Assembly: GCA_003427395.1 (NCBI GenBank)
Contig: BFEA01000009.1
Location: 3,652,863-3,716,862, forward strand
DNA: 64,000 nt
Origin: Chara braunii
Taxonomy: Eukaryota; Plantae; Charophyceae
Direction of reading: 5' to 3'
This document shows, one piece after another, positions 6,139 to 54,400 of this stretch; the first letter of the stretch is position 1; every line of letters begins with the position of its first letter. The notes under the pieces were generated by a model. It did no database searches. It saw nothing but the letters and a program-made list of their open reading frames with translations, and was not told where the DNA came from. A program made the position numbers and the translations under genes.

Positions 6139-6141
<3 letters not shown>

Positions 6142-6214
<73 letters not shown>
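6142..6214. repeat. (GA)n microsatellite
   Basis: Direct observation. Confidence 0.95.
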
Positions 6215-6217
<3 letters not shown>

Positions 6218-6374: not shown

Positions 6375-7705
6375 AGGATGGGTGAAGGAGGTGGTGGAGG
6401 AAGAAGGTGGAAGGTGGTTGGCTATGGCGGATGGGTGAAGGAGATGGTGGAGGGTGAAGGTGCAAGGTGGTTGGCTATGGTGGATGGGTAAAGGAGATGG
6501 ACGAGGAAGAAGGTGGAAGGCGGTCGGCTATGGTGGATGGGTGAAGGAGGTGGTGGAAGAAGAAGGTGATCGGCTACGGTGGATGGGTGAAGGAGGTGGT
6601 GGAGAAAGAAGCTGGAAGGTGGTTGGCTATGGTGAATGGGTGAAAGAGGGGGTGGAGGAAGGAGGTGGAAGGTGGTCGGTTATGGTGGATGGGTGAAGGA
6701 GGTGGTGGAGGAAGAAGGTGGAAGGTGGTTGGCTATGGTGGACGGGTGAAGGAGGTGGTGGAAGACGAAGGTGGAAGGTGGTTGGCTATGGCAGATGGGT
6801 GAAGGAGATGGAGGAGGAAGAAGGTGGAAGGCGGTCGGCTATGGTGGATGGGTGGAGGTGGTGGAGGAAGAAGGTGGAAGGTGGTTGGCTATGGTGGACG
6901 GGTGAAGGAGGTGGTGGGGGACGAAGGTCAAAGGTGGTTGGCTATGGTGAATGAGTGAAAGAGGTGGTGGAGGAAGGAGGTGGAAGGTTGTTGGCTATGG
7001 TGGATGGGTGAAAGAGGTTGGCGATGGGTGAAGGAGGTGGTGGAGGAAGAAGGTGGAAGGTGATCGGCTATGGTGGATGAGTGAAGGAGGTGGTGGAGGG
7101 CGAAGGTGGAAGGTGGTCGGCTATGGTGGATGGGTGAAGGAGGTGGTGGAGGAAGAAGGTGGAAGGTGGCTGGCCATGGCGGATGGGTGAAGGAGACGGT
7201 GGAGGAAGAAGGCGGAAGGTGATCGACTATGGTGGATAGGCGAAGGAGGTGGTGGAGGAAGAAGGTGGAAGGTGATTGGCTATGGTGGATGTGGTGGAGG
7301 AAGAAGGTGGAAGGTGGTCGGCTATGGTGGATGGGTGAAGGAGGTGGTGGAGGAAGGTGGAAGGTGGTCGGCTATGGTGGATGGGTGAAGGAGGTGGNGA
7401 AGGTGGAAGGTGGTCGGCTATGGTGGATGGGTGAAGGAGGTGGTGGAGGAAGAAGGTGGAAGGTGGTCGGCTATGGTGGATGGGTGAAGGAGGTGGTGGA
7501 GGAAGAAGGTGAAAGGTGGTTGGCTATGGTGGACGAGTGAAGGAGGTGGTGGAGGANGAAGGTGGAATGTGGTTGGCTATGGTGGATGGGTGAAAGAGGT
7601 GGTGGAGGAAGGAGGTGGAAGGTGGTTGGCTATGGTGGATGGGTGAAAGAGGTTGACTATGGTGGATGGGTGAAGAAGGCGGTGAAGGAAGAAGGTGGAA
7701 GGTGG
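6375..7705. repeat. G-rich ~53-bp minisatellite (GGTGGAAGGTGGTTGGCTATGGTGGATGGGTGAAGGAGGTGGTGGAGGAAGAA), roughly 25 degenerate copies
   Basis: Tandem units directly visible. Confidence 0.95.
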
Positions 7706-8527
7706 GAGGCGTCGCCCTTGCTACTTCAAGTGTCCTAGGTCCGGCCGTCTACACCCCTCCGGCCTCCAGGCAAAAATCCTAGCACTAATCCTACAATAGC
7801 TATGCAGATAGACACAGATTTGCAGAAAACACAGTTCTGTAGGGACCCACAGATTTGCAGAAACACACAGTTTTACAAAAAATGCATAATTTGCAGATTT
7901 GTTGTTTTTTCGGCACTTTTTGCCGTTTTTGCATAAGTGTGGGGTGCCGGAAAACACAGGTCTGTGTTTCCTGCCCCAAACGTCCTCAGAATCCCTCAAA
8001 ATTTGGAGGGCTCTTTCACTGCACCTCAGGGAAGGCCTCTGCAAAATTTGAAGTGATTCCGATGTCGTTTGGCCGTACTTGTCTGTTTCGGGCGCCTTCC
8101 GGCCTCAATGCGAACAATTCGGGGAAGTCCGTTCTCCGTTTTTTTCAGAAAAACGGACTCCGATGGTCTGCTGGGTCTGCAGGCCACCTGTTTATGCCTA
8201 GGATATGAGGTCTGAGAAGTTTTAGGCCACATACCCCATGTTTGACAGATTTGTCACAGGGGTGTTTCCGGGTCGTTTCGGTCCGCTTGCGGTTTTCAGG
8301 GCGGTCTTGCGTCGGCGGCCGGCCACTTGTTTTCCTTTGCAGCAGCAGATGTCCGGCTTGGCCAGACCTTTTCAGCAGCTAAGGACCTACAACAATCAGA
8401 AACAGCCGCAGCAACAGTAGTCTAAACAATTGGAAATAAGTATCCTACCTACTTCTCCATTACCGCGTTCGAATAGAACACGAGGGGGGGTGAAAGCATG
8501 CGGTATTGGAGCACAGAGGGGGGCATG

Positions 8528-9545
8528 GCGATTTTCACTAGACTAGGAAAATGGTCAATGCATGAGCACAACATCACAAAAACACTAGAATGAACCAAGA
8601 TTGGACTAGCGATTTACACCATAGTGGAGGTTGAAGGAGAGAGTGGAGAGAAAGTGAGTGAAACTCACTTTTGGACTCTCAGACACACAAGGGAAAGTTG
8701 CGATTTACACTAGACTAAAAAAATGGACAATGCACACGACATCACAAAAACACTAGAACGAACCAAGATTGATCTAGCGATTTACACCATAGTGAAGATT
8801 GAAGGAGAGCGTGGAGAGAAAGTGAATGAAACTCACTTTTGGACTCACACACACACAAGGGAAAGTTGTGATTTACACTAGACTAGAAAAATGGACAATG
8901 CATGAGCACATCATCATAAAAAACACTAGAATGAACGAAGATTGAACTAGCAATTTACACCATAGTGAAGATTGAAGGAGAGAGTGAATAGAAAGTGAGT
9001 GAAACTCACTTTTGGACTCACACACACACAAGGGAAAGTTGCGATTTACACTAGACTAGAAAAATGGACAATGCATGAGCGCAACATCACAAAAACACTA
9101 GAATGAACCAAGATTGAACTTGCGATTTACACAATAGTGAAGATTGAAGGAGAGAGTGAAGAGAAAGTGAGCGAAACTCACTTTTGGACTCACACACACA
9201 CACAAGGGAAAATTGCGATTTACACTAGACTAGAAAAATGGACAATGCATGAGCACAACATCACAAAAACACTAGAATGGACCAAGATTGAACTTGCAAC
9301 TTACACCATAGTGAAGATTGAAGGAGANNNNNNNNNNNNNNNNNNNNNNNNNNNNNNNNNNNNNNNNNNNNNNNNNNNNNNNNNNNNNNNNNNNNNNNNN
9401 NNNNNNNGAACCAAGATTGAACTTGCGATTTACACCATAGTGAAGATTGAAGGAGAGACTGGAGAGAAAGTGAGTGAAACTCACTTTTGGACTCACACAC
9501 ACACAAGGGAAAGTTGCAATTTACATGAGACTAGAAAAATGGATA
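8528..9545. repeat. ~172-bp tandem repeat, about 6 copies, spanning a small gap
   Basis: Unit start GCGATTTACACTAGACTAG (with variants) recurs at 8528, 8700, 8868, 9041, 9215. Confidence 0.95.
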
Positions 9546-9609
9546 ATGGAGAGTCTACTACTAGTGGAAAAGTCTTCTACTCGCGGTCCAAATCTTTGCG
9601 AGATATCTA

Positions 9610-9739
9610 TAGAGGAAAAGGAGAAGAAAAAAAGAAGAGGAGGAAGAAGAGGGGAAGGGGAAGAAGAAAAAGAAAAAGAAAAAGAAAAAAAGAAGAAAAA
9701 GAAGAGGAAGAAGAGGAGGGAGAAGAAGAAGAAGAAGAA

Positions 9740-19618: not shown

Positions 19619-20493
19619 CCTTCTTTAATCCTGCACATAGGGAAAAACAAATTCCGGGGTGGCAGACTGCCCAAAGGTCTTAGGATTTTTAGGTCCTAAC
19701 TGTCGGTTTCATAGTCTTTATATATTTGTCATTTCAGTATTCCATTTTTCTAGTGGTCATCTCAGGTCTGCCCCCTTTTTCGGTTCGCGGGGTATCGCCC
19801 GCCTTCCCTTTGAAAAACCTGCCGCTTTGGGTCGGTGTTTCGACACTACCGCGCATCGGATCTAAGGTGGCGTGTCCATGACGGAGTGGGTCCCTATTTT
19901 GGGGATGACCTTTTTCTTTCCTGCCCTTGGACACTTCTAGCGCCCTTGGCGATAGTGACCATCCTAGTCCTGTCCCGATCCATCCTTACATAGAGTAATA
20001 CTCCAACTGCTATCTTCCGGAGAGCGTTGTCCTCACTACTGTTTTTGTAGTACATCGCTATTTTTCCTCCATTAGGCCACCTCCCCGACGTTTTCTCACA
20101 CTGATTCCTCAGGCTCGTTTTGTTTGACGGACTCTTCGAACAGTCTAGCCACCCTCGCAAGATAGTTTTCCCCCATTCCTATTTCCCTAATAATTATCGA
20201 CTCATATTCTTCATAAGTCAGTCGTGGTGTCTTGAATATCAAAATGTTGATGAGTATTAGCAATTCTCAGGCCCTATTTCCCCAAAACGACCCGTGTTTT
20301 ACCGACACATCGTAAAACATTCCCGTTGTCTGCAGCTGGAAATGGTGTACCCGGATTAAGGTCGCATTCACCAGGTCTCTTGCCCTCAGGAGGCTTCCGA
20401 ATACCAAGTCTATCATGAAACGAGGTACTCGACCCGAGTCCTCAGCCCTACATTCCTTCTTCCCCGAATCTGCTGACTTGTTCGGGCCAATGC

Positions 20494-20832
20494 CTAGGCC
20501 GCTCTCCGAAAGATCGGTAGTAACCTATGTCCCAACGCCATCTTGGTCCCTAGCATGTGCCACCCAATCTCCGGAATATACAAGGTTCTAGTTACCCTTA
20601 GATCGATGTACAAGTCATCTCCTGTCCCTCTATTGAATCTCATGCCGCTCCATAGGCATTCCACCATCATGAAGGCTTGGTTCCTCCCCAGGGTCACAAC
20701 TCGCCATTCCACGTCAATCCCTCGAACCTCGTAGCTTGCAGGGAGCGACACCTTCCATCCGTTAGCGCTCTCTATGGGCGGGCGAGGGTGAGAGGGTCGC
20801 CTCGACATTCGGGTGTGCCTCATTGCCATCAC
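20494..20832 (-). pseudogene. Accessory ORF4 of element B
   Basis: Homolog of 230-616. Confidence 0.75.
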
Positions 20833-20948
20833 CGGTTGGTGGATTCCTACATGGTTCAGAAAAAAAGTAAATACCTCAGATTTCCTCTATAGCCCCAGAC
20901 CTTGCTATAGCCCCTGTTCTTTTCGTCGCCCTTGTTTTTTTTCCCTCT

Positions 20949-21725
20949 CTATTGGACTACCTCCTCCTCTGGTAGTTCGAATAAATGATAAATGTCGTCT
21001 ATGTAGGTCATCCCGCAGCTTACTTCGCGCCTAATGACTCCCCACATAGTTTCATCACTTACTAGCGGAATCCTTGGTCTCGTTAGTACAACCGCGCGCA
21101 AAACGCATAGCATTTCATATCCATGTTCTTCCTCAAATGGCCCCATATTCAGGAAGGCCCGATAATACTCTCGATGTACCATGGCGTCCTCAAAGTTCAA
21201 CCTAGGTAGTACTACTACCGCCTGCTCAACGCGATCCACACCTCTCATCCGTCCCAACATGAAGGGCGACAATCTCATTCGTACGGTTTCATTTGGCAGG
21301 GTGAAGGTTCCTGCCATGACAATTCTTACTTCAGTCGTCCCACTGTCCCGCTCCGGATCCACGAATTCAAACCCTTCTCGTAATGTTATCTGCCGAGCCT
21401 CTTCAAACATTCGCATGGGATCGCCCCCGGATGCCGAGGTGATCCCAAAGGTGCGCCAACCTTCTTCCGATAGGAACAACGATCCCTTGACATGTACGCG
21501 TCCCGGAAGGTCCAAGTTCATGCCCCCAAACTCCCCCCTTGCACGCCATTCCAACTCCACTACTAGATACACCGTGTCTTCCACCAACTCTGCTCCCACT
21601 CAGTCCATTATTGGGTTGCTTACTCCATTCCTTGCCGACATACTTATCTCTACCCTGCCATCTAAATCGCTTGGTGGCAAAATCCCACGACGTCTGTCTT
21701 CCCGAAGTGTCATTCTTCGAGCCAT
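20949..21725 (-). pseudogene. Accessory ORF3 of element B (~258 codons, one in-frame stop)
   Basis: ATG at 21725 (MARRMTLREDR) is in frame with ORF 20949-21599; homolog of 763-1534. Confidence 0.8.
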
Positions 21726-23635: not shown

Positions 23636-25172
23636 TCAATCTTCGACCATCGGGCGCTTTCCTTTCTGCAGAGATTTCTCATATTGAGATACAACTTGAG
23701 GAGCGGTCTGCATGAGTTCTTCCCTCGTGAACCAGCGGTCCTCCTTCAGTATGATGTAGGAACCGAACGCGGTACTGCAGCTTCGGTTTCGGAGGACGTC
23801 CCCTGCCTGTAGGTCTCTGAACTGGCAGCTCCCTGTGATCCACGATGTCATCAATGTCCACTTCTTCGTCCATGGTTGGGGGCAGCATTGAGCGACGAGA
23901 AGGAAACTGATTAGTCTCTTTGAAAGGTGCTAGCTTGGAGGCGTGAAAGACAGGGTAAGTATGGAGATGACCAGGGATCTGGATAACATAAAATGGCCCA
24001 TCCGGATCTATCCCCACGATGTCCAAGACTTCCCAGGGTCCAAAGTACTGGGGCATGAGTTTGCGGGAGATCCCGTGCTCCTGTCCCATTTCTGAAGACT
24101 TAACCCAGACCCTATCCCCAACCTGAAATGTAGAAGGTCGGCGATGTCTATTTTCAGACTCTATCATTGCAGCCTGCTCCATCTTCTGCTCATAGCGGTA
24201 AGCAAATTCTAAGGTACCTGGTGCAGCAGTGGATTGATTCTAAGGGAGAAGAAAGTCTAGGGGCAGTCTAGGCTTAAATGTTAGCAGTAAGTTGTTTGGG
24301 CTCACCCCGGTGGCGCTGTGTACAGCGTTGTTGTACAAGCTGGCGATGAGAGCAAGCTTCTTATCCCAGTCCACCTGGTTGGGCTTGATGTAATGCCTCA
24401 ACAGGTGTTGTACAATGCGGTTCAATTGCTCGGCCTGACCGTTGGCCTCTGGGTGATTCCCAGAAGTCATCTGCAACTGAGTTCCCTGCTTTGCAGCAGC
24501 GACCTTCCACAACTCACTGGTAAACCGGACATCCCTGTCACTTATAATAGACTTCGGTAAACCAAAGTCCCGAACCAAGTTTTCTTTGAACATTCTGATC
24601 ATATACTCTGTTCTTGTTGTTTCCGGCATTGCCACTAACCTAGCATACTTGCTAAATCTATCCACAATGACAAAGATGTGTCGCATCCCACTCTTGCTGG
24701 TGATCAGAGTATCCATGAAGTCCATGGACAGACTCTCACCAGGCCTTTCCGGAATCGGAAGCGGCTTCAAGAGCCCAAGAGGGGCCTGTGTACGTGGCTT
24801 GTTTCTCTGGCAAACTTGACACGTTTCCACGTAAAGCTGAGCATCTCTCATCACCGTGGGCCACCAGAATCGCTGCAGCAGATTAGCTGCGGTCTTTTTG
24901 TACCCAAAATGATCGGTGGCATCATGACATTCTCCTAAAAACAAACTGCGCAAAACTCGCTATTCGGGACACACAAACGCTTATTCCCTGCCTTCTCAAG
25001 GAACAACAAGCCATTGACCAACTCAAACTCGGCAGAGGTCTTCTTGTCCTTCGCCTGCAATCTGCGTATGATCTCAGACATAAACTGGTCCTCGCGATAG
25101 GCTTCCACCAAGGACTGAGTAACATCGTCCGTCAGATCGAACTCAGTAATTAGCGCACCCGAGAAATCAGGT
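23636..25172 (-). pseudogene. Chromovirus integrase plus chromodomain (frameshifted)
   Basis: CHD..HFG...CQVCQ; SMDF; SDRD.RF; GQAEQLN; FGPWEV; VFHASKL; IDDIVDHR...YRVRF...EDRWFTREEL. Confidence 0.92.
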
Positions 25173-27200
25173 CTAGCTTTCCAACTGAGATGATCTCACA
25201 GTCTCTAGGACAACCCTGCGCTCAAGCCTATCTCTGTCCGTCGCATCTGCAGGTGGCTCATACTCCCAAAGTACCCTCTGGATCTGGGCCCTCCAATCAC
25301 TCGCCTCTCTCTCTTGAATCCTGAGGACCGCCTCGGCCTCCTCTAGAGTTTGGGCCTCCCTTCCCTCAACAATCGTACGGAGGTCACTCACCACCTCTCT
25401 CAGTGCATCGTGCTCTGTCTGCCTAACGCGACTCAACTCAAAGGATCAGATGGCAACTCTCCTCGTGTAATCTCTCACCTGCTTTGTCGCCTCTCGCGCT
25501 GCTGTGAGGCCACTACCAATATTGGTCCTCTGTAGGGTCAGGTCGTCATACAATACTCTAAGCCCACCAGTGGGCCGATCCTCCGACAAGTGAGGTCTTG
25601 TGGCCTGGCCTAGTCGCTCAAAAGCCAGCCAACCCGAAAAATGTAATGATGGCATCCGTCCCATCTCCTCGACTAGCCACGCTTCCCTCCTGACAGGCTC
25701 GTGATCTACCGGCCCCTGAGACTCCGGCAAGCTCTCCTGCTCATAAGTCATGGATGCATCCGGGGTACGCTTCGGGCCTGCCTCAACGTGACCCCTCATG
25801 CTGGCCTCACTCCGATCACCATCCCGTTGAGGAGTATTTCCAAAATCTAGAGGTGATGATCCCACTCGCTGGGTTTGTATGCCCTCTGTAGGATCCTCCC
25901 TATCTAGCCCCAAAACCTCGGCCTCAACCTGCTATGTCTCTATATCCATGACCGAAGACTGGGATACCTTTTGTTACATCTGGCTCCTAGGAGACTCCAC
26001 ATCATATAGCTGGGCAGTCAATGAACCCTCAGGCTCATTTGGCTGCTCAGCCAATCGACTCTCATTCATTAATGGCAACCCTTCCAATGCTAAAGGCCTC
26101 ATCTCACCTCTCTCACCATCCTCCATCCCTGGCTCTGGCTGAGGCTGGTCCTCCTGTCCATCATACCCTGGCTCACCGTGCATCGACGTTGTCTCTCGCG
26201 GCTGCTCTGGCTGAGGCCCCTCGTACTCCTGCATCGGCTCTATGGTGGCAGACCCTATCATAAGTTGTAGTTCCCCCTGTGGGAGATCTAATGCCATGTC
26301 CCGTGTGTCTCTCCACCGATAAGGCCTATCCCTCCTATCCTCCGATGCAGTATCGGAGACCACTCTCTCCGTGGTATCAATCTTCGTAGGTTGGCCGAAG
26401 TAGTCGTCAACACAAGCTGTAGGGAAGTCTCCTCCCCATCCTGTCTGAGCATAGGCTGAGTAGTCCCATCTGTCCCAGGCGCAATTCCAGGATCGCAGTC
26501 TCCAATCCCTATCTCATCCTGACATGCCTTTGGTATTGGCGATGTCCCAATCTCAAGGATAGATGAGTCACCTCGTCTCTAAGACCCTACTGGTAAGGCC
26601 TCCTTCCCCACATCATCTGTCGGGAGGGCCTTTCCAATATCATCAGTGAGCACCTGATCTCTCTCCTCTAGATCATCCCCTCGGTCCTGACGTCCTCGAC
26701 GCCTGCCTATCCTAGGCCTGCGTGGGATCCCTGGCTGCTCACTCTCTCTCTGCCTCTCTCGCGATCGCCTCTCATTACTCTCAACCCTCTCTAGTTGTGC
26801 CCGTTGACGTGTCCTGAGCTCTGGAATGTAGTCCCTAACCTCTCTGTGCAACCTGCGTCGCCTCCCTGTAGTGAATGCCCCTCTAAGTGTCACTAGAAGC
26901 TCCGCCCAAGTCTGCGTTGTGTATGATATGGTACTCACCTCACGTCTAAGCTCCGGGACAATCTAATGTCGAACCTGCCTAACCCTCTGTGCCTCAGTCC
27001 ATCTTTGCCCATCCCCAAAAATGATGAAAATCTCAAGGAACTCATCCAGGTTAGCCCTATCAAACCGCATGGGCCTACCTTGTCGATCAATCGGCTGAGG
27101 CCGCAATCTCAGCATCCGCCTAGCGAACTGCCTCCAATCCAATGACTCTCTCACGTCAAAAACACACTATATCATGTCCGTAATCACAAAAAGTGTCGTT
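25173..27200 (-). pseudogene. Degenerate gag-like region of a different Gypsy family
   Basis: RFDRANLDEFLE...RWTEAQRVRQVRH resembles element B gag TFNGANITKFL...RWSEEKKMDHLRQH; lies downstream of a PBS. Confidence 0.6.
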
Positions 27201-27267
27201 TTGCCTGGATCATCGTTTTGCACTAAGCCCAAGTCCGTTCACTATGGACCTCGGTAGGCAGCCGAGA

Positions 27268-27285
27268 TCCCCGGCAACGGCGTCA
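27268..27285 (-). other. Primer-binding site complementary to the tRNA-Asp 3' end
   Basis: Minus strand TGACGCCGTTGCCGGGGA versus canonical TGGCGCCGTTGCCGGGGA; 2 nt after the LTR end ...GCTAGACA. Confidence 0.85.
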
Positions 27286-27287
27286 CC

Positions 27288-27860
27288 TGTCTAGCGCACA
27301 GTCCCCGCTAGGGGGACCTTTCCGGCCACGTCACACAGGATTAACAGAACTCGCAAACCGCTTCATGAAAAGGGAAGTGGCAAAGCCGCTCCGGCCGAGT
27401 GCGCCAGATATACCTTCATCGAGTCCCTACGACAGAACAGGGTCTCGCGAGGTACAACTCACCTCCACCCGTGGGAGCTGTCACCATCCCTTGGGTGGGC
27501 GTATCCCCGTCGAGTTACTGAACCACACGCGGAAGCTTTTACATGCAATCATGGAGGTGGCCCAGCCGAGGAAATTCTCGTATGCTGTAGCATAGGGGGT
27601 ACGCGCGGTCCACGCCTAGCTTGGACCCGTACGCGAACCGTCACTCTGGGGTGCTGATCTCCCACGTGCGATTCAGCGTCAGTCGACTATGACATCCTAA
27701 CTCAATCACGCGATACGCAACAAAACAAACTAACTCAGCCAAACAAATAAGCATAGTCCCTTTTTCATACGTCCTAGATCAAGAGAGAAAACGAGAGTGA
27801 GTGGGGACTTGCCAAGGGATCAGGGACACCGAAGCGAGCTGCAACGGAGCCAATCATCTT
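27288..27860 (-). mobile_element. 3' part (R/U5) of a 5' LTR, truncated
   Basis: Ends CA before the PBS; homologous to 32650-33264 in the opposite orientation. Confidence 0.75.
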
Positions 27861-28067: not shown

Positions 28068-29794
28068 GCTTACCTATTACAATGGCTGCCAACCATGATC
28101 TACAGGGAGAGGTTCGAGTGTGAGCATGTCCGCTGGGGTCAAGCGACAATAAACTGTGACTAAGCAGGGAAAGGCCTGAGGAGATTCAAACGGGGAAACT
28201 CAGTAATAGTAACTTGCGACTGTTCGACGAGGTTTGACAAGGAGGAGATGCTTACCTCGTTTACGTGATAAGGAGAACAACCACGTAACAGCCTGAGAGT
28301 GCTTAGGACTCACGACGTCGAAGGACTCGAGAAGCAAGGCCCCACTTGTGCGAAGACGGATTGTCCACCGACAATCCGTTGTAAGAAGCTTGAGGGTGAG
28401 CATGCTGGCCCGAGATCAGAAGACAGTGGACTAAGCAAAGCAAGATCGGAGTTTTTTCAGCAACACCAACATTCTAGACGACACTGCAATTGCAATTTTG
28501 CCTTGTCTAAAACTGCTATAGCCACTATTCTTCTGCTGTTGTGGAAGCAGACCACTACCATTACAGTTGGTCAAACACAGCTATTATTGCATGGGTGTAC
28601 TTGAGTTGTTGCTGAAATCTCCAAGTGCGCTGGGCTGAAAGAGGGGGGGGCATTCGTGTCGATTGCTGGTTGCCACAGGCCTACTGCTGCTGATTAACCT
28701 TCCTAACCGATACGGGTGGTTACAAGAGCGGGTTGTTCCCAAAACTACGGATTGCCACATCGGCAAAGCTTTGCAGTCGAGTTCCGGTAATTGCAGCAAC
28801 TATAGTCACGAGTCCGGGTTGTTATTGAGGGAACTGTTGCTGTCACAAAGGGTCGGGGCTGTCGATCTGCAGTATTACGGCGCCCTGCAGCACCACTGAG
28901 TTTTCTTGTTGTTTGCGTATCTGCAGTCTTACTGGCGTTACTATTGTTAAGCCTTTGCCGGGTTATTTCTGCGACGTCATGGACACCGTGTATTGTTAAA
29001 AACACAACATTGTGACTTACTGTTTCTGGTGAGCATCACACTGTGCATATCTATTGCGCTATTGTTATGGATGATTACGGAGTATATCACGTTTTCTGCG
29101 GAGTTTGCTGCATTTTTGCTTTAAGCACGGGACTGGGCTCTATTCAAACGCAACAATTTTTAGGCTACGTAGTCGTGTCCTAGTCAGAGGTTGGAGTGAG
29201 ACGATTTGGGAGTGTGATCGGGCATTTACGGACCGGTTACTGCTGCGACTTGAGAGACTGTCAGGAGGTTGCTATTTGCATTTTGGGCGTGATTCAGCCG
29301 ACTTCACTGCATTCTTTTGGCCATCATTGCGGGGCCCTCAGGCGATTGAAGATTACAAGGCCCTCTCACATGAATTGAGTTGACCCTCTCTTGGATCTCG
29401 AGCATCTGACTTATCTTCTTCTGCCTTTCTTACTCTAAGTCTAGTCTAAGGTTACGAGAGGAAGGCGGCAGGCGGGATTGCAACCCATAGGACTGCAACA
29501 AGACCTTGTGGGAGGTCCACGCACCAATTGTGGGAGCTCTGCCGAAGGGCAGGCGGGGTTCTGGAGGCAGATAACACTCAGGTATAATGCTCGTTTTATG
29601 CGTGTGATCCTATCCCCTAAACTGTACTACTCTCTATATACGTGAATGAAAGTATGAATGTGAAAGCTATTACTTTTGACCACTTTTATTTCAGGATACA
29701 ATCTGAAAAGGTTAAATTAACAAGTGTATATGAAAAATTCAAATTACTTAAGTGAATTCAAACAAAATGAAAATGTGACCCTATTCGTTGTTGT

Positions 29795-31050
29795 ATTGCG
29801 GAGGTTGGGTGAACGCATAAGTTGCGGGCTATTCGGTCACACGCAATTGTAGCTTGTCTAGGCGGGGCTAGACTCCTCATAAGTTGAGTAACTTAGTTCT
29901 ACAACTTCTACGCTATATGTCATTGTATGGGCTGACTAGCCACACCATAAGTTGGTGTTGTCTAGTTATATGTCTTTCGTCATTTGTTCAGACAAAGGCT
30001 AGACCCCTCATAAGTTGAGGTCGTTTGTGTATGCCAAATGTTCAAGCTGATCAACCTCACCATAAGTTGGTGCAGCCCAGTTATACACCTTATGTCCATT
30101 GTCTAGGAAGAAACTGACCACACCAAAAGTTTGTGTGGATCAGTCCTATGCCTTATGTTTATTTGTTTTGGCAGGCTAGTCACACCATAGGTTGGTGTGA
30201 CCAAGTCATGAGCCGCGAACATAACTGGAACCTGAGTATACAATATGATATAATTATATATATATTAAGTATATCATTGGTAGGTTAGGCATCATAAGTT
30301 GGGAGATCTACCCATATAAGCTGGTAGCGGATAAAGCAGAGGAGAAAATAAGATTAAAAGTATAAAATTGAGTGGTAACTTTGGGCAGGTTGACTCATCC
30401 ATAAGTTTGGTAGTTGGTCCTATGCCCCTGATAATACAAAGGGCATAGAGATAATATAAAGTTTGGCTATTTTTCTTTCTAAACATAAGTTGATGTTTGG
30501 ATAGAGGATCCTCATATAGTGAGGTGACCTGACTACTCGTCTGAAGACAGAAAGAACGTGTGATCTTACTTATTGAATGCAGTTGTGTTGCGGAGGCTGG
30601 GCGAACGCATAAGTTGCGGGTTATTCGGTCACACGCACATGTTGCTTGTTTAGGCGGGCTAGACTACTCATAAGTTGAGTAGCCTAGTTTTACGCTATAT
30701 GGCATCGTGTGGGCTGGCTAGGCACATCATAACTTGGGGTGTCCTGGTCATATGCCTTTCATCGTTTGTTCAGGCAAAGGCTGGACCCCGCATAAGTTGA
30801 GGTGACTCAGTTATTTGTGTATGCCGAAAGTTCAGGTTGACCAGCCTCACCATAAGTAGGTGCAGACCGGTCATATGCCTTATGTCGATCATCTAGGTAG
30901 AAACTGGTCACACCATAAGTTGGTGTGGTTTTGTTTTATGCCTTACGTATACTTGTTTTACCAGGTTAGGGCACCATAAGTTGGTGTGACCTAGTCATAT
31001 AAACTGGCAGGTCAGTCACATTCATAAGTTGGGTTGGATGATCCTATGTC
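29795..31050 (+). repeat. Array of ~18 stem-loops with a conserved ATAAGTT loop, ~60-65-nt period, including a ~790-bp higher-order duplication
   Basis: CATAAGTTG core flanked by inverted repeats in each unit; 29790-30230 is paralogous to 30585-31000. Confidence 0.85.
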
Positions 31051-32646
31051 TTATGTAAGGAAGGGTAAAAAAGGAATAACGAGGGTTTTTGAACGAACTA
31101 CGTGACCTGGAAAGGAACTTGAGGGTTCGCGAGAGATGTTGTTGCACTCACCTATGTATGTTTTTGAGGTTAATCTCTGGGGTATTCTTTTGGATAGCTT
31201 AGTCACTTTTAACGCTCGCTGAGTGTTGGAGCTATAGGTAGGTGAAATGGATGATGGGAGAAAAACTTGGGATACGATAAGAGTGATCTTACTAGAAGTT
31301 AGGACTAAAATAGCTCACGATATCACCTTCAAAGGAGGATCGTGTAATTTATCTCCAGTTCTAATTATCAAGTGAATGTCGGAAGTCATTCTCAAGTATA
31401 GTTGTACCTTATCTTTGCATTTTCAGCTTTGTATAAATCTTGGCAGTCTCCTTTTCCGACGGGAAGCGCTGCCGAACTGTTTACAAATTTGAAAGAGTTA
31501 GCAATTTTTGGACATCTGAAAATCCTGAAAAGACACTTTTTCTACGGAAAGCGCTGCCGAAGTTTTGTAGAATTTGAGGAGTTCGATTATTTTATGCTAG
31601 GAAGAATTTGACAAACTACCCGGACTGAGGGAGATGCTGCCAAAATTTTCAGTAATTTTTGGAACTCATTAGAAAAAGGTGAGGAGAAGTTAGTAGAGGA
31701 GTTAGGCTTATGACATGGAGCATGTTCTCCTACTACATAAGATTGGTCCATTTTGGCCTGGACTGTGATGCAGGTCTACAAACTCGATTGAAGGTTTGAT
31801 TCGTCCGGCCTAATCCTACGAAGGATCGCTTTACTGTTATATTTTGATAACAGGTCGGTTTACGACACAACTTCCCTGCTTCTGCATCTCAACCTAAGGC
31901 CTTGACTCTTGTGGGTTTTTATGTTTGTTGAAGTTTTTACCTTGATTTCTTTTTAAGTGGCCATTTCTAAAGACTGAGTACCTCTATTGAGGGATGGTGG
32001 AAATTGGTTGGGGTTTGTATGCATAAGGTAGGGTGTGAGTCGCTTTGTGATAGTCTAAATATTGTGTGAATGCGGATGGACAAGCCGCACAACTGTTGTG
32101 AAAGTGATCATCTAATAACACACAAACTTCTGCTTGACTGTTTGAACTATCTTTGCTTAACATAACTATAATGGCTGAAGGGAATCCTGCAGTGGTTGTG
32201 AAAAGTGATAGCTTCATATTTCATAACCCCTCATGTATGTATATGTATACATTCCTACTTACATATACATTTAATACCTGTACAGTCTGCTGTGACCGCA
32301 TGCGAGGTTTAAACAAAGTATGTCTTGAGAGAAAATGAAGATCCCCTTTACATTTTGCTTTTTAGAGTTATTATAGTTGGATGTTATAGTCTGTGGCAAC
32401 CGTCAAAGTCAAACCTCTTGATTTTTTTCCAGGCCTTGGATGATGGAGCTTGCCTCCTAGGCCACGAGAGTCGACTGCCACCACAGGCCGCAGCCTGTGT
32501 ACCACCCACTCTCCGCAGGATGCAGAAGAGGGTGTGGTGATCAACCGCCGTGGCGGTTGTCTAGCGTGAGAGATTAACCCCTCAAGGCGCGTGTCATCCG
32601 ACACTTGAGAGTCGAAACGTGACCCCCGAGATTATCGAGGGTCACA

Positions 32647-33264
32647 TGATTTTGGGTACCACATAGTACTCCATCGTTGCGGCTGTGTGTGTATGCTTGC
32701 ATTGCTGGTCGATATGAGAAAGGCTTAGCGCCCACGCGGTTTTGTCTTGAGTCTCGCGAGCGACTATGTTAAAAGGTTTTGGGTCGGACACTGAAGGGAT
32801 TAAGAGAGTTTTGTCTTTATGTCTGTATTGTAATTTTATTGAGATGTAACGCGTGGTGAGTGGATTGTCTCATAGTCGATCGACGATAAGTCGTGTTTGG
32901 GACCTAAGCCTCCCAATGCGTCGATTCACGTGTGGGTTCGATTGAGGGGCGTTGACCGCGCGTACCCCCTATGCTACAGCGAACGAGAAACTTCCTCAAC
33001 CGGGCCACCTCTACGATTGCATACGAAAAGCTTTTGCATGTGGTTCGGTAGCTCGGTGGGGTTACGCCCACCCAAGGTCTGGTGACAGCTCCCGCAGGTG
33101 GAGGTAAGTTGTACTTTGCGTAACCCTATCCTGTCGTAGGGGTTCGCGAGAGATATGGCTGACGCACTTGGCCGGAGCGACAAAAACGCTCTATGACGAA
33201 GTCCTGCAAAAATCCTGCATGGCGCGACCAGGAGGGTCCCCCTGAGGCACCGATGCGCTCGACA
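32647..33264 (+). mobile_element. LTR 3' fragment of the same family as 27288-27860
   Basis: Long colinear DNA similarity; ends GCGCTCGACA versus GCGCTAGACA. Confidence 0.75.
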
Positions 33265-45712: not shown

Positions 45713-46033
45713 TGTAGCGGACCTTTGGTTGGCCTGTGAGACCAGCCCGTTGGCCTGTCCTCATAGGCCTGTGTTCTGTTCGGGGGCAGTCCAGTCCAGT
45801 CCAGTCCAGGCCGGTACCTCTGTCCGTACCAGCCAGTCCAGTCCAGTCCCGTCAGTCCGCTGGGTTATACCCCAGCAGTTGTCTGTTTCCGAGATCATTC
45901 TACACTTGCACGATTTTGGAGTACGTGCGTTGGAGTCTTGCGTGGGAGTTGCGCTGTGCATCTTGCTCCCCCCTTCTTCCTCCATCTCCATCCCTATCAC
46001 TAGCGGAGCACCACACCTGGTGGGTCCGCTACA
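45713..46033 (+). repeat. 5' LTR of element D (321 bp)
   Basis: Direct repeat of 55529-55839 with about 12 substitutions and one 10-bp indel (counted by eye). Confidence 0.95.
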
Positions 46034-46034
46034 T

Positions 46035-46046
46035 TGGTATCGGAGC
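46035..46046 (+). other. PBS complementary to initiator tRNA-Met
   Basis: TGGTATCGGAGC versus canonical TGGTATCAGAGC, 1 nt after the LTR. Confidence 0.9.
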
Positions 46047-46346
46047 GAGAACGTTCCCCGCTCCCACCCACCACCCCGTACAGCTGGTCAGCACCCCGTA
46101 CAGTGGGGAAAACAGCAAACCCGACAACGGTTTTTTTCACTGTTTTTCGGGTGATTTGCAGCGAAAACGAGGGAAAAAAGCAGCGCCTGCGGGGAGGTGA
46201 CACGTGGCGGAAAAAGCAGGCGCCACCACGAGCGCGTGCGCGCAAGCGCCGAGGCCAAGGCCGCCGCACGCGCGCGCGCCACGCGCCCACGCTGCCCCGC
46301 TGCCCCGCCCCGCTCCCAGATTTATATTATCAAGATCCGGGAGTTT

Positions 46347-46428
46347 TGCTGCTGCTGGGGTTTGAACCTAGGCGCCTGCTAGGCCATGCGCGTGCGTAAG
46401 CACCCTGATAACACACTCGCCACAGAGC
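46347..46428 (-). other. tRNA-like Pol III A/B-box module, antisense in the element D leader
   Basis: Minus strand GCTCTGTGGCGAGTGTG...CCTAGGTTCAAACCCCAGCAGCAGC. Confidence 0.45.
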
Positions 46429-48068
46429 GTAGATGNNNNNNNNNNNNNNNNNNNNNNNNNNNNNNNNNNNNNNNNNNNNNNNNNNNNNNNNNNNNNNNNN
46501 NNNNNNNNNNNNNNNNNNNNNNNNNNNNNNNNNNNNNNNNNNNNNNNNNNNNNNNNNNNNNNNNNNNNNNNNNNNNCCCCCCCCCCCCCGCCGGCGAGCA
46601 GCAACGGGTGGGCTGCTATTTGCTCCCCCTCTCCCCCCCCCCGTTGGTTGTTGCTGCTGCCTGCGCACGTGGCCACCTGCATTGCCACGTGGCAACTTAC
46701 TGTGGACTTGAAGACCCCTTTTTTCAGGGGCTGCTCTATAGTGGTGAGGGTCTGTTCACACAACAGACCCTAGATCTGCAGATCTGCAGAACTGCTGCTG
46801 CTGGGGGCTGATCAAGATCTCAGCCCCCCTCTCTCCTCCAGCTGGCTGCTGCAGCAAAGGCCAAGACCCTCCTGGTCTTGGTGTACCTTGTGCCCTTGGA
46901 GACACCAAGGGTCAGATATCTCTTCTCTCTCTCTCCTTCCTCTACTAACTCACACTCCCTACCTCTCCTCTCTCCTCTTACTCACCCCTTCTCTTTCCCC
47001 CACCTTCTACTGCATCTTTTCTCTCCTCCTTTTACCTTCCCCACCCCACCTTTCTCCCACCACCCATTCTTTTACTCTTTATTTCTTTTTTTTTCTTTCC
47101 TCCTTCTTTTCTCTTTGCTTCTTGATCCCTGTCCACCTTTCCCCATCCCTCCTCTCTCCCAACTACCACCACACCACCCCCCTACCTCCCACTTCATCTT
47201 TTTCTCTCTCCCACCTATTTCTTTCTTTTCTCCCCTTCCCCCCTACTTCGAATTTTTTTCTGTTTTTCTTTCTTCCACCTCTCTTTTGATTTATCTTTTT
47301 TCTTTTTTCAAAAATTCGAATTATCTCCTCCCCCACTTTCTTTTCTCATTTTCTGATTTATTTCATTTATTTTTCTATTTATTCTGAAAATTCGATTTTC
47401 TTTATGACAACCCTAAATTTGAGTAGGTGTTAGTCTTTCTTGCTTTTGGCACACGTTTTGACCGCGTGGGGGTAACGAAATGCAGCCGAAATTTTCTGAT
47501 TTTCTCTCACTTCGTCCTTTTTCGGCACACTTCGACCCCATGGGGATAACGAAATGCTGCCAAAAGTTTTGAAAAATCAGCTACCCCATCTCTTTCCACC
47601 TCCTCACCCACTTATTTACTTATTTATTTATTTATTTATTATTTCTTCATTTATTTTCTGAATTTTTTTTATTTGCGGCAGTTTGAAACCTAGTGTGCTT
47701 ATCTCGGTCTCTCCTTTCCCCTTGGCACATTCTTGACCCCATGGGGGGTAGGGAAATGCTGCCGAGAATTTCAAAAAAATAAATATTATTTTTCTTTTCA
47801 CATTTTGTTTACTTCTTCTCTTAATTATTTTTATTATTTATTTTCTTTTGTTTTTCTCTTAAAATCTTGTTGTTTATTTATTTTTCTCCCGCCTCCCCCC
47901 CCTATGCTTGCTATTTTATTTTCTTGATTAGGTCACTGGTACCCTACCCTAACCACTTAAACTTCGGTTAGGGTTTTCTTTGGGTTTCTCTAGGGTTGAG
48001 GGTTCTTCAAAACCCCCCTACTTCCCCTTCCTCTTCGGGCACCTTGGACCCGAACCACCCCTCCCCCT

Positions 48069-50158
48069 TTGACGGCGCCCGCGCTAGCCTTGCTAGCACC
48101 GTCAGCCACTTTCTACCGCGGACCCCCCCCTCGCCCTCCGCTCACGCGGACCTCTTCTGGCCCCCTCCAGTCCGGCCCGTCACCTCCCCATGGCCGACGG
48201 TGTGTCACACGCCGCCGATGCGGCGACGACCACGGCATCGGGCTCCACACCCGTGCCGGCGGACCAGGGCCATCATCCCCAGTGGCGACCCTTGCCGCCG
48301 GCATGCAACAACTCCAGGACGCTGCCTGCCCGTCATCTCCTGGCTCCCAGTCTGGGTCCCTCGTCCTCCGACAGGGTGGCCACGGCGGAGCTTCCTCCTC
48401 CGCCGCCCCCGACCCGGCCATCTTGGTGACTGTCCACACCCCTAGCACGACGGCGGCCACGAGCCAGACCCTCCCTCAGTCTACGGGCGCACCCGTCCAG
48501 ATCCCGGTCACAACGGCCACGATACAACAACCTGCTACCATGGTCTCAGCTTTTCCGGGTGCCCCGCTTCTCCCTCCCCTTCGCACGACCGCAGCACCAC
48601 CTGGCTCTCCCCCCTCTGGGATGCCCCGCGCTGCTCGTGCGTCCACTTCCCCCACTCTTCCTCCTGCTACCCCTCGCATGACCTACGTTCGAGTTCTCGA
48701 GGACGAAATTGCCCAGCTCTGGGCCGACCTCGCCCTCTCACGCCTTCAGCCTCCCCCACCCTCACAGGTGGCCGCGCCTTCCGGCGCACCCCCTTCTTCC
48801 TCTACTCTTCCTTCCATGCAGGCTCGCTTCCCTCGCCCTGCACCCTACCCATCCCCATCCTACCTCCTCCCCATCCCCTCGGTTGCTGCGACCTCTTCTA
48901 CCGCAGCTCCCGTGCAGCCTGCCGCTGTTTCCCCCGCCGCTCCACCATGCGGCCCGGACGTACAGTCAGTTGCGCCCCCTCCTCCAGGACCTGCGCCGAC
49001 TTATTCAGCCGTAGCGCAGTTCCCTGCTTCCCGTTCTCCTCGCCGCCAAAATGGTGGCGGACCACTCGTCCGCTTGACGGACATTGCCTTGTATGATGGT
49101 ACAGACATACGCGTGTCTCGGTGGCTACAGTCTACCACCCGCACGCTCCAGCTCATAGGTGCCGCTCCCGACACGTGGGTGGCTCACCTCTCCACGAGAC
49201 TGCGTGGCGGTCCTTCCGATGCCTGGGAGGATTTTTACGCTTACTCCGTTCGTGCGGGTCGGACTCCGACCTTCATGGATTTCCAGGCGTTGCTCGAGGA
49301 TCGCTTCGGAGCCTGATATGACGTGACTGACGCCTTCGAGCGTGTCGTCACTACACGCTGGTCCGGCTCTGGTGGCGCTGCCGGCCTGGATCGCCACATC
49401 CAAGTCTTTCAGGACGCCCGCCTCATTTGTGACATGGCGTTCCTCCCCGAGGCGGCCCTTATCGATCGTTTCTTGGCCAGCCTTCCGCTCGAGTACCGCT
49501 CTGAGCTATGGCGGTACGAGTTCACATCGGCCCCGCAAGCTTACGAGGCNGTCAGGGACCATCAGCGGATGCGGGCCCGTCTTCACCCCGCCTCCTCCTC
49601 TCAGCCGCAACGTACAGGTTACGCCTCCTCCTCCTCTCACACCACTTCCAAGCGTCGTTCCCCTTTCCGTGGTCGCCCCCGCTGTTTCGCGCAGCAGGGC
49701 CGCCACTTCTCGCGCCGCTTCAGCACGCTCGAGTATATGGTGAGTAGGACGCTGGTGCCCCGCTGTCGCCAGAGGGTGACCATAGCGACGACCTCGACCT
49801 CGGTGAGGCCGTCCACCACCACCTAGAGGACCCTACTCTCCTTATGGCTGAGCGCCTCCAGCTCATCCTCTCCACCCTTTCCCAGGCACGCAGCCGCCCT
49901 GGTCACGCTGGCGCGTCGCCCCCCGAGGTCCCTCAGCAGGACCTCCCCCAGGGCTTTATCCCTCCTCGCGGTGTCCTTTCCGCTGAGGAGCGCGCGACTA
50001 TTTTGGGCCGACGTGGGTGTTTGCGCTGCCGCTTGGACGGTCGTACCTCCTCGCGGTGCCCTTATACCACCGCCCTTGACCGCCACTACGCTGACCTTTC
50101 CCGCGAGCGTCGTGCTCAGTCCCCCCCCGGCGCCTCACATCCCCGTGGCCCCTTCTAG
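48069..50158 (+). pseudogene. gag: Gag of element D (Pro-rich N-terminus, retrotrans_gag-like core)
   Basis: YDGTDIRVSRWL...RLRGGPSDAW...FQALLEDRF; LIDRFLASLP; GCLRCRLDG; one stop at 49314 and a frameshift. Confidence 0.8.
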
Positions 50159-50406
50159 CCACGGTGCAGTGTACACCTGCGCCCTCCTCAGTAGAGGGTT
50201 TCCCGACATCTCCGTCGCGGTTCGCCCCTCTCGCTACTGGAGCTGAGGTATCGCAGGACTCGACAGAGTGTACTCAGCCCTCTGTTGCAGTACCGTCTGT
50301 GCCTCCGCAGACCACCGTCTCCCCTACTTCCCCGTCGTGACTACCGACGCGTCGAGCCATTCGCTCAGCCCGTTGCAGCGAGCAGCTTGCTACTCGCAAG
50401 GACATT

Positions 50407-53400
50407 GTGTCCTCTCTTGTGGACTTGAGCATGCTCCAGGCTCGTCAAGAGCGACTCACCCTCCATGTCGCTGCACTGCGTCGCCTTCTCGCCATCCTCT
50501 CTGACCCTGATCGCACCCTCCCGATCATCCCAGTACGACTTGGGACCTCCACGAGGGTGTACTCANCGCTGTGGGATTCCGGTTCTCAGGGCGACTTCAT
50601 TCACCCACGCGTGGTGAANGAAGCCCGCTTACCCACGACAGGGTCTCCGACTCCCATCTCCGTCACCCTAGGGGATGACAAGACCCAGCGCTTCTTCGAT
50701 CAGACGTTCACCGACCTCCCTTTCTTCCTCACTCTCGAGCCGACTAATCGTCCCCCGGCGTCTCGTCGCCACCGCTCCTCTGCACATTTCGATGTGATGG
50801 AGACGGGGTACGACTTCATTCTCGGCACTCCGTGGTCTCGTCGGTTCCGCAGCACCGAGGCCAATTGGGCGACCAACACTCTCGTTCTCAAAACGAAGTG
50901 TGGACAGACATATCGCGTACCTTTCATAGGTACCACTGCGACACCACGCCCCGATTCTTCTCCCCCAGAGCCTTCCGTGCCCACACCATCTCCTTCTATC
51001 ACTGTCACCTCGCCTCGGCAGTTCGCCCACTTCATCCGACAGGACGACGTCACCTTCTTTATGGTGAACATGACGGATCTCTTACACTATGATCCACCCT
51101 GTCCCGACGCCGAGCTCATCCCTCTGGAGCCAGATACTCCTTCTATCTCCATGACTCCCATCTCTACTTCCGTCCCTCCGCCGCCCGTCGAGTCCACCCC
51201 GCCGTCGTGCGTTGACGCTGACGCTGAGGAACTCGCACGATATACGGCCGACCTGAAGCCCGCAGTTCGTGACCTTATTCGAGAGTACCACAACATTTTC
51301 CCATCGTCGTTCTCGTACGCTTGCATCCCACCGATGCGCGACGTCGAGCACTCCATCCAGCTTGTGCCTGACTATCGTGTTCACCACCAGGCACCCTACA
51401 GACTCTCGATCCCCGAGGCCACCGGACTCAAGCGTCAGCTTGAGGAGCTCCTGAGACTGGGTTTCATTAAAAGCAGCAACTCCTCGTGGGGTGCACCCGT
51501 CCTTTTTGCTCGCAAAGCGGATGAAACTCTTCGTCTCTGCATCGACTATCGCGGTTTTAACCGCTACACGGTTAAGAACAACTACCCCATGCCTCGTTCC
51601 GATGAGCTGTTCGACCCCCTGGAAGGCAACCGCTTCTTTACGAAGATTGATCTTCATAGCGGTTACCATCAGATCCGCGTCGCTGCAGCCGACCAGCCGA
51701 AGACCGCGTTCCGATCGCGATTCGGCCACTACGAGTTCACGGAGATGCCATTCGGCCTCACCAACGCACCCGCTACCTTTCAGAGGGCGATGAACGACAT
51801 CTTCAGGGACATCTTGGAGCAGTACGTTCTCGTCTACCTCGACGATATCCTGGTCTACAGTCGTACCCTTGAGGAGCATCTCAGACACCTCCGCGATGTC
51901 CTTGACCGCTTGCGCAGACATGGCTTCCATGCCAAGCTGAGCAAGTGCCGCTTTGCCCAACACAAAGTGGATTTCTTAGGACGATACGTGTCTGACCAGG
52001 GTCTCCACATGGACGACGCGAAGATCATTGTTATTGCGGAGTGGCCCGTCCCCACATCCGCCAAGCAGTTTCGTAGCTTCCTAGGTCTGACCAGCTACTA
52101 TAGTAATTTCATCCAGGGATACGCTAGGTATTCCTACGTCCTTACCTCCACCCTCCTCCGGAAGAACCCACCCTGGGCTTGGACACCCCTCCACGAGGAC
52201 GCCTTCCGCGCCCTCAAGAAGGCGGTGACATGCACACTGGTTCTTCACCTACCCGATTTTGATCGCCTTTTTATCCTTACCACCGATGCGTCAGACTTTG
52301 CTGTAGGAGCAGTGCTTTCCCAAGTCTTCCCCTCCTCTCCTGATTCCTCTCATCCTCGTATCCCTCGCTTCCCACCACCTACCCCTACCACTGCTTCCCG
52401 ACTGACGCCTACTCGTCCAGCTACTGACGAGCCTTCTATTGACTATTCTCCTACCATCGTCGAGGACGACATTGTCGAGTCTCGCTCAGGTGATTGTCTG
52501 ATAGCCTTCTACCCCCGCCAGCTCCTCCCCGCAGAGATAAACTACACTGCTGATGAACGTGAGGTTCTCGCAGTAGTTTATGCCGCTCGGCACTGGCGTC
52601 ACTACCTGCACGGGGCACCATTCACGGTGCGCACGGACAACTCTGTTGTCCAGGCTTTTCTGACAAATTCGAAGCTCACTCCTCGACAGGCTCGCTGGTG
52701 GCGCGACCTATCCGAGTTTAGTTTCACCACTGAGCACATCAAGGGTGAGACTAATCGGGTCGCAGATGCCTTATCCCGGTGCCTTGACCACGACCAGGAG
52801 CTGACTATCGCGACATCTCGGTCACCACTGTCCACCACTCGGTGATCGACGAGTTTCGCACTCAGTAACGTCACTGCCCCGACTATCGCGACATCCACAC
52901 GACCCTTCGGAGTGGCAAGACCGTCCCGAACTACTCTCTCGGGGACAACGGTCTCGTGTACTGGCACGGTTCACAGGGCACCAGAGAGCCCCGTATTTGC
53001 GTTCCCTCCACTGGACAGCTACGTGTCCGAGCAGTAGCAGAGTTCCATGACCAGGCAGCCGCAGGTCATATGGGCTTCCACAAGACGTTGGCTCGTGTGA
53101 GCTGCCTGTACGTTTGGCCGAAGCGCAAGGACTTTGTGAAGGACATCTCGATGGACTTTATCGGTACCCTTCGTCCTCCGACCCCCCGCGGTCATGATGC
53201 TATCTTGGTCGTCGTCGACCGCTTCACGAAGTGTGCACGCTTTGTTCCGTGCCGTTATGCCATCAGTGCACGTGAGGTCGCCGACATCGTGTTTGACCGA
53301 GTTGTGCGTGACCACGGCTTACCACTGAGCATCATCTCTGACCGTGACCCACGCTTTACCAGCCGATTCCGGCGACGGCTCCATGAGGTGTACGACACTC

Positions 53401-54400
53401 AGCTCCGCTTCTCCTCATCTTACCATCATCAGACTGATGGTCAGACCGAGATCACGAACAGGACCCTCGAAGATATTCTCCGAAAGATTGTTCGTGACGA
53501 CCAGCAGTGGGATCTCCATCTTGCCCACGCGGAGATAGCCTACAACCACGTCATCTCGCCAACCACGGGGATGTCGCCATACTATTGCGACCTCGGGTAT
53601 CACCCTCGTGTTCCCGTGGACTTCCTTCGACCGTCACAGATGCACCCCGACATGAGTTGTCCCGCGCTGGATGATTGGGCTGCACACATGACGTCGATCA
53701 TGAAGACCGCACATGAGCACATAGCCGCTTCCCAGACCCGCATGGCAGCACGTGTGGACCGATCGATGATGGATCATCATTCAAAGTCAGTAATGATGTG
53801 CTTATCGACGCCCGCCACTTACAACTCGAAGCGGACAGGCTTCGCAAGTTTCGGCGTCGCTTCTTTGGCCCATGCCGCATCCTCCAGGCCGTCGGTTCTG
53901 ATACGGCTTCTAGCCCTATCAGCTTTCGTGTGAAGCTGCCCGACTACCTACGCCAGGCTCGTGTGCACGATGTCTACCACGTCTCGTTACTGCGCCCTTA
54001 CCTCATACCGTCTGAGCATTTCGTTGGACGACCATACGAGCGCCCGCCACCCATCATGGTGGACGGCCACGAGGAGTTCCTCGTTGGTCGTTGAGTCACC
54101 GACGACAACCCCCCCCACGTCGAGTATTTCGTACGTTGGAAGGGTTACCCTAATGAGGAGGCTACCTGGGAGCCCCTCGAGCACTTGCAGCACGCTCGCA
54201 TGTTGGTGCGTGCCTATGACCGTGCTCGTCGTGCTGAGTTCACTGCTCCTCCTCAACCCACTGACCCTCCTCCTTCTCCCCCGGCTGAGGAGACCGCTGA
54301 AGTCAAGCCTGCTCCATCTGAGGCAGACCTTCAGCAGCAGCCGGATGCTTCTGAGCGTCCACAGCGCACTCGTCGTCGTCCTGCTCGATACGACGATTGA
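50407..54400 (+). pseudogene. pol: Pol of element D: protease, RT, RNase H, integrase, chromodomain (frameshifted in the IN region)
   Basis: LWDSGS; YDFILGTPW; LRLCIDYR; MPFGLTNAP; YLDD; TDAS; VADALSR; SMDF; SDRD; GQTE; FGP; VRWKGY...TWEP. Confidence 0.95.

Follow-up and report, generated by a model that had tools for sequence, protein, structure and literature searches.

A one-directional array of same-loop hairpins in a probable long LTR of Chara braunii, a possible docking platform for Gag

Invariant loops carried on variable stems serve as repeated protein-binding sites in the transferrin receptor IREs, in CsrB/RsmZ and in the MAT2A hairpins, and the RRE binds multivalently. An LTR element, moreover, must package RNA with the whole R-U5 in order to rebuild its LTR. 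In retroviruses, Gag recognises 5'-leader stem-loops with unpaired purines, and splicing can remove these stem-loops; Psi of HIV-1, MLV, MMTV and MPMV is of this kind, while the HIV-1 RRE and the MPMV CTE are structured cis elements that serve the export of unspliced RNA, as laid out in the part of the source available to us (PMC12789967). Repeated fold-back motifs are also found in the LTRs of the maize Sireviruses Ji and Opie, which are Ty1/copia elements; the accessible part of that study describes about seven palindromes per LTR, lying before the TATA box, with arms more conserved than the centre (PMC4728375). Among the non-chromovirus Ty3/gypsy elements, which include Athila, Tat and Ogre, LTRs of up to ~5 kb, non-coding tandem repeats and priming by tRNA-Asp, among other primers, are recorded in the available sections of a further source (PMC6317226).

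The array described here lies in a 64-kb stretch of Chara braunii DNA (the window, that is, the whole stretch analysed) and resembles each of these systems in part. Like Psi, it consists of conserved stem-loops exposing unpaired purines, which would lie in 5' non-coding RNA, plausibly in unspliced RNA only. However, Psi is made up of a small number of dissimilar hairpins close to the PBS and gag, whereas the array comprises 19 same-loop hairpins located ~2.2-3.5 kb before the LTR end. The self-complementary dimerisation loop that is a feature of Psi is absent: the array's loop is non-palindromic, and no complement of its core occurs in the LTR. For this reason, we liken the array to the Psi/RRE type rather than file it as a member, and Gag binding is a proposal. 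The RRE and the CTE, although likewise structured cis elements, are not tandem same-loop arrays and do not lie in an LTR 5' leader. As compared to the Sirevirus palindromes, the relation between centre and arms is reversed, since in this array the sequence of the centre stays constant while the two arms change together (6 of 62 core columns and 25 of 114 stem columns are variable among four block copies). With Athila, Tat and Ogre, the array's host shares the LTR size and the non-coding tandem repeats, a likeness by description and not a clade placement, but compensated same-loop hairpins are not reported in the part of the source that covers these elements (PMC6317226). The IREs, CsrB/RsmZ and MAT2A hairpins differ in their loops and their hosts. 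No Rfam covariance model matched positions 28500-32500 at E<=1, and a literature search, in which the coverage of subscription papers was thin and which did not extend to the Chara genome paper, returned no description of the array. It is thus apparently undescribed, as the initial annotation had supposed.

The hairpin array is real, and its parts are as follows.

29790..31060, + strand: hairpin array of 19 units, one decayed, sharing the core CATAAGTTG
29816, 29878, 29946, 30009, 30061, 30124, 30186, 30293, 30400, 30484 and 30513 (decayed), + strand: core positions, first half
30608, 30669, 30728, 30791, 30851, 30914, 30975 and 31023, + strand: core positions, second half
29790..30209, + strand: first seven-hairpin block, 79.7% identical to 30582-30998 (self-BLAST), a duplication also present in the homologue L235
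30582..30998, + strand: second seven-hairpin block, copy of 29790-30209

In the core, C-G and A-U pairs close a UAAGU loop. The 64-kb window contains 16 occurrences of the heptamer ATAAGTT, against 4.7 expected, and none of 100 shuffles reached 16; 14 of the 16 occurrences lie within 29817-31030, all on the + strand. A covariance model built from the array units gave 17 matches in the window at E<=1, all on the + strand within 29793-31064 and none elsewhere in the 64 kb. The 18 cores listed by the initial annotation are all present, displaced by at most 1 nt; 13 of them are exact copies of CATAAGTTG, four have one mismatch (30186, 30400, 30728 and 30851) and one has two (30124). A nineteenth hairpin is decayed at 30513 in the window and intact in L235. 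The five stems named earlier are found in the sequence exactly as written. The spacing, given as mostly 50-70 nt, is confirmed for 13 of the 18 intervals (48-68 nt), the other five measuring 107, 107, 84, 29 and 95 nt. A linker reported to follow most stems is common in the looser form YAYGYC, but its full form, CTTATG, occurs only four times in the array. A loop-to-linker pseudoknot (CAUAAG/CUUAUG) was considered and rejected, since there are only these four linkers in the array and the long stem leaves no room for it.

The unit is typically ~60 nt long and is composed of a short upper stem, an internal loop and a 6-bp lower stem, often with a basal GGC/GCC helix beyond a 3-nt bulge. The array consists of two copies of the seven-hairpin block, a less regular middle and one last unit; given the duplication of 29790-30209 at 30582-30998, it therefore contains ~12 unit types. 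The stems adjoining the core fall into about three main classes, CG/CG, CCT/AGG and CAC/GTG. Outside the core, identity is 0.73 within a unit type and ~0.40 between types in a rough alignment. Thus, of the "freely varying but paired stems" proposed initially, the pairing is retained, while "freely varying" was too strong. Tandem Repeats Finder did not include the array among its 33 rows for the window, and a tRNA scan found nothing. Elsewhere in the window, tandem arrays are located at 6376-7653 (53 nt, 24 copies) and 8528-9327 (173 nt, 4.7 copies).

The homologue L235, a metagenome contig, is 83% identical over 1430 nt and has the same block order. Pattern scans covered 27 of 64 parts of the viral contigs, where they yielded 120 stretches, and 22 of 64 parts of the metagenomes, where they yielded 118; among the 237 loci kept, L235 was the only BLAST homologue of the array. 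The other high-scoring loci that were inspected are short tandem (probably coding) or CRISPR-like repeats and not homologues. One CRISPR-like array, L199:167-704, has a repeat that happens to contain the core nonamer, with unrelated flanks. In a DNA run, the summed contig depth over the array was 1,331-9,639, while a 991-nt piece identical to the window flank had a depth of 8. The array clearly belongs to a multi-copy family, although this depth is not a copy number. At two places where the window copy has off-core letters, the other copies carry the consensus letter (3536 of 3590 in depth at 30408 and 2513 of 2513 at 30733), and at 29959 a C-G pair is restored in 13 of 13 reads of the RNA run X9.

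The multi-copy host family is likely a Ty3/gypsy family of Chara. The window consists of nested fragments of Ty3/gypsy and LINE elements; neighbours and relatives show the gypsy domain order, and the element's own pol is absent from the window. Several other parts of this nest were noted. The segment 33265-34801 belongs to the gypsy family also found at 45713-55839, but has an internal deletion that joins the protease region to the 3' part. At 6-2385 and 20270-21599 (- strand) there are several paralogous frames related to a 216-aa frame (20949-21599), possibly an accessory-gene array, and 56935-60176 (- strand) contains two long low-complexity frames, 377 and 347 aa in length, to which no Pfam family could be credibly assigned.

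Pairing was analysed in a set of 36 units, 18 from the window and 18 from L235, with two full array copies behind the statistics; the set excludes the window's decayed unit (30513) and an L235 unit whose core carries a deletion (1388). Every core column is conserved in 34-36 of the 36 units, and the core is far better conserved than the linkers: of the 237 unpaired columns in the four block copies, 104 are variable (core versus unpaired, p=1e-7). The near-invariance of the loop claimed by the initial annotation is thereby borne out. The three positions outside the core are Watson-Crick paired in 26, 27 and 26 of the 36 units, with 4, 3 and 2 pair types, respectively, all four Watson-Crick pairs occurring at the first. 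The paired fraction is 77.1%, as compared to 62.4% with shuffled arms (0/500) and 35-47% in slid registers. Permutation gave p~0.002 with one unit per type, and a median p~0.03 (90th percentile 0.14-0.15) with six stem classes. Under a tree-aware null, in which six columns were simulated independently on a tree from the outer flanks with matched parsimony length (45 changes), 38+/-11 Watson-Crick cells were simulated versus 79 of 108 observed (0/5000), whereas the count of Watson-Crick pair types fell short of significance (356/5000). The predicted 6-bp lower stem is 86.7% paired versus 11-50% in slid registers and passed the shuffle narrowly (10/500), in an alignment (A2) of 30 of the 36 units selected in a way that favours the lower stem, as the short or irregular units W4a, Wm1, Wm3, Lm1, Lm3 and Lm4 were omitted.

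These results uphold the earlier proposal that pairing is kept beyond neutral decay, the observed pairing exceeding the tree-aware, shuffled and slid controls. The proposal that each core is a stem-enclosed loop holds in part: when folded in the context of the whole array, the core is closed at p>0.5 in 9 of 19 units of the window copy, which is decayed, and in 12 of 18 L235 units, and the mean unpaired probability of the loop is 0.79 in the window copy and 0.94 in L235. The array is likely under selection. As the element replicates via an RNA, selection at an RNA site accounts for the fact that loop letters and pairing, but not stem letters, have been retained.

The array is located within a probable long LTR, which we place by comparison with a sibling element on the opposite strand.

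28637..28650, + strand: stretch resembling a polypurine tract, 6 nt ahead of the probable LTR start
28657..33264, + strand: inferred LTR of ~4.6 kb, TGTCGA...TCGACA, with the 3' end well supported and the 5' end moderately; probably a 3' LTR
27288..27692, - strand: 3' end of the sibling's 5' LTR, homologous to 32870-33264 (76.8% over a 310-nt BLAST hit)
27268..27287, - strand: PBS-like sequence directly after the sibling LTR end
25170..27214, - strand: broken Gag-like frame of the sibling with Arg-rich stretches, whose relatives are Chara braunii proteins

The sibling LTR sequence (27692-27288, - strand) ends in CA and is followed by the PBS-like stretch, which presumably is of the tRNA-Asp type. 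Since the aligned sibling LTR end precedes this stretch and the Gag-like frame, 33264 is taken as the LTR end and + as the sense strand. The LTR start is set at 28657 because the purine tract precedes TGTCGA, the inverse of the TCGACA end, giving 6-bp inverted ends. The right LTR junction may be a deletion joint, as it has a few letters in common with the neighbouring family's fragment. The inferred LTR contains no open reading frames of note (two ATG frames of 46 and 55 aa). The Gag-like frame has no relatives among proteins of similar length and no Pfam family; among longer proteins, it is related to four Chara braunii gene models (57-82% identical), which are chimeric. These four relatives have Arg-rich stretches, and one of them has a C-terminal CCHC knuckle. 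The frame belongs to the sibling element, which may lack the array. The initial placement of the array in a long LTR-like region, with + as the sense strand, agrees with both the sibling LTR/PBS alignment and the inferred LTR borders.

This anatomy provides firmer evidence on the strand than folding or G-U pairs. The alignment consensus folds with -3.67 kcal/mol on the + strand versus 0.0 on the - strand, and the four-block alignment with -106 versus -59 kcal/mol. On the other hand, the - strand is as good as the + strand in single-sequence folding z-scores, and in the window copy 11 of 19 cores are closed on the - strand versus 9 of 19 on the + strand. All cores face one way, and no inverted core is present within the inferred LTR. 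The many G-U pairs that had been noted on the + strand do exceed A-C (53:12 in the lower stem and 11:4 in the inner stem), but not significantly so against slid registers (p=0.13 and 0.42); in strand-neutral pairs the ratio is 12:3 (p=0.035), with cells that are non-independent and a level not above the unpaired background. The G-U argument thus speaks weakly for the + strand.

The sequence around the array further suggests the borders of a leader intron.

29245..29581, + strand: conserved block common to related elements and candidate leader exon, with DNA depth up to 66,735; sense-transcribed
29582..32432, + strand: candidate intron of 2.85 kb, CAG/GTATAA ... TTTTTTTCCAG/G, holding the array
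31420..31660, + strand: second three-copy repeat of ~84 nt inside the same candidate intron, unrelated to the hairpins, sharing GCTGCC(G/A)AA
33101..33111, + strand: site resembling a strong splice donor, GAG/GTAAGTTG, lying 160 nt short of the LTR end; its letters +2 to +8 match the hairpin core

The GC content falls from 0.54 to 0.305 at the candidate donor (29582) and rises from 0.35 to 0.555 around the candidate acceptor (32432), and L235 matches the window at 29550-29587 and then diverges up to the array. Together, the splice-site, GC and conservation borders suggest a leader intron containing the array. In oligo-dT RNA, the depth of first-mate-minus versus first-mate-plus reads over 29405-29565 was 59.3 versus 0 in run X10 and 23.7 versus 1.6 in run X8, the RNA strand being assigned by the usual first-mate convention and the reads, mostly <95% alike, coming from other copies. 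Sense coverage in X10 and X8 extends over 29244-29565 and is ~2 or less over the array. This drop is not proof of splicing, because DNA conservation drops at the same places, and no read joining 29581 to 32433 is found among the joints listed (15 of 24 and 15 of 221). In the third run, X9, the whole region is covered on both strands, with somewhat more antisense than sense depth over the array. Support for transcription of the array as such is weak, with low depth on both strands, and the copies that give RNA over the upstream block may lack the array.

A loose end behind 29541 (34 reads in X10 and 9 in X8) resembles the spliced junction that a related copy would give at the same donor, but is no more than a hint, since nothing in the window matches the downstream part above chance. 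The sibling LTR preserves the donor-like site of 33104 as GAG/GTGAGTTG (near 27450, - strand), and loose ends of related reads have it too; an intron starting from this site would take the PBS out of the mRNA. At 28088-28130, ~98 sense RNA reads in X9 with a loose end upstream point to a transcribed relative elsewhere in the genome.

Our preferred reading, held tentatively and at somewhat less than an even chance, is that the array is a multivalent docking platform in the sense RNA, most likely for the element's own Gag, that marks the intron-retaining genomic RNA for packaging. The array would lie downstream of the transcription start, in R/U5, and within a leader intron, so that it would be absent from spliced mRNA and kept in unspliced RNA; there, Gag would dock on the repeated loops and that RNA would be chosen for packaging. 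A label of the genomic RNA would be expected to look like this, with a series of identical loops held on compensated stems and placed in a leader segment that can be removed. The repeated invariant core, the compensated stems, the single orientation and the many family copies argue for docking, and the Arg-rich stretches of the family's Gag-like protein, with the CCHC knuckle in one of four relatives, for Gag as the partner. The packaged RNA pool of BARE is uncapped and not polyadenylated, according to the part of the source at hand, and such a pool would fit the low oligo-dT coverage of the array (PMC3735527). Against Gag, the selectivity of retroviral Gag leans more on structure than on primary sequence, as stated in the portion of the source considered (PMC12789967), whereas nine letters are nearly invariant here.

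This last point would suit a specific protein, and the same anatomy could serve hairpins that bind an accessory or host RNA-binding protein for export, retention or protection from decay of intron-containing RNA. Retroviruses use such cis elements to export unspliced RNA, as the accessible part of that source has it (PMC12789967). However, no accessory gene is tied to the family in the window and the frame behind the sibling PBS is Gag-like, and we consider this Rev/RRE-like role unlikely, though the likeliest of the alternatives. A role in splicing itself ranks next and is rather unlikely: the UAAGU loop corresponds to letters +2 through +6 of a splice donor whose G at +1 has become A, and 19 such unspliceable decoys would hold U1 snRNP or donor-binding factors, favouring intron retention and suppressing early polyadenylation in the long AU-rich leader. 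The core ATAAGTTG and the donor-like GTAAGTTG that the element itself conserves at 33104 differ in a single letter, and A stands at the +1-equivalent place in 35 of 36 units. Nevertheless, the duplex predicted with the 5' end of U1 has only -2.5 kcal/mol versus -10.7 for the real donor, a loop of 5-7 nt limits helix formation, and the likeness was spotted after the fact. With A at +1 and such weak U1 pairing, the cores do not qualify as functional 5' splice sites. Suppression of 5' LTR poly(A) use by U1 binding is on record for HIV-1 and foamy viruses in the part of the source seen (PMC12789967). Splice-donor decoy and Gag label might reside in a single RNA element, in which a copy of the retrotransposon's own splice donor was turned into an unspliceable loop, in 19 copies within a leader intron, that holds back splicing by engaging the donor-recognition machinery of the host and labels the RNA with the retained intron as genome for Gag; we regard this combination as distinctly improbable.

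A function at the DNA level, either as transcription-factor sites in a U3-type enhancer array or as cDNA hairpins in reverse transcription or strand transfer, would be in keeping with the scarcity of RNA over the array, with the minus strand folding about equally well in single sequences and with a G-U excess that is not significant; palindrome arrays also occupy the cis-regulatory part of Sirevirus LTRs, as far as the available text of that study goes (PMC4728375). Yet compensated flanks are needless for double-stranded binding sites, the cores all point in one direction, the alignment consensus folds on the + strand only, and over the block that precedes the array there is sense RNA from related copies, making a DNA-level function doubtful and less probable than the decoys. 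Templated correction of quasi-palindromes in reverse transcription could yield double changes without selection, and a neutral minisatellite grown from a palindromic unit, its stems repaired in this manner, would account for homologous units that arose by duplication. Tandem arrays are, besides, common in large non-chromovirus elements, in the sections of the source available (PMC6317226). This neutral origin is very unlikely, since it leaves unexplained the invariant loop in diverged units, the consensus letters across many copies, the kept bulges and the lack of any inverted loop. Least probable of all is a small-RNA precursor cut from each hairpin, as suggested in the initial annotation: the units are tandem bulged hairpins of ~60 nt, and hairpin-derived small RNAs have been proposed for Sirevirus LTRs in the part of the study consulted (PMC4728375), but here it is the loop that stays constant while the stems vary from type to type, which is the reverse of a miRNA cluster with its conserved arm and variable loop.

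How plant and algal LTR retrotransposons choose between packaged and translated RNA is a largely open question. As a compact, repeated and sequence-defined hairpin, the unit described here offers a testable candidate for a packaging or export code, and if a partner protein is found, the array would be a natural tag array comparable to MS2 loops. Should the improbable combination of unspliceable donor loops and Gag labelling prove true, it would constitute a switch between replication and translation that is undescribed among plant LTR elements.
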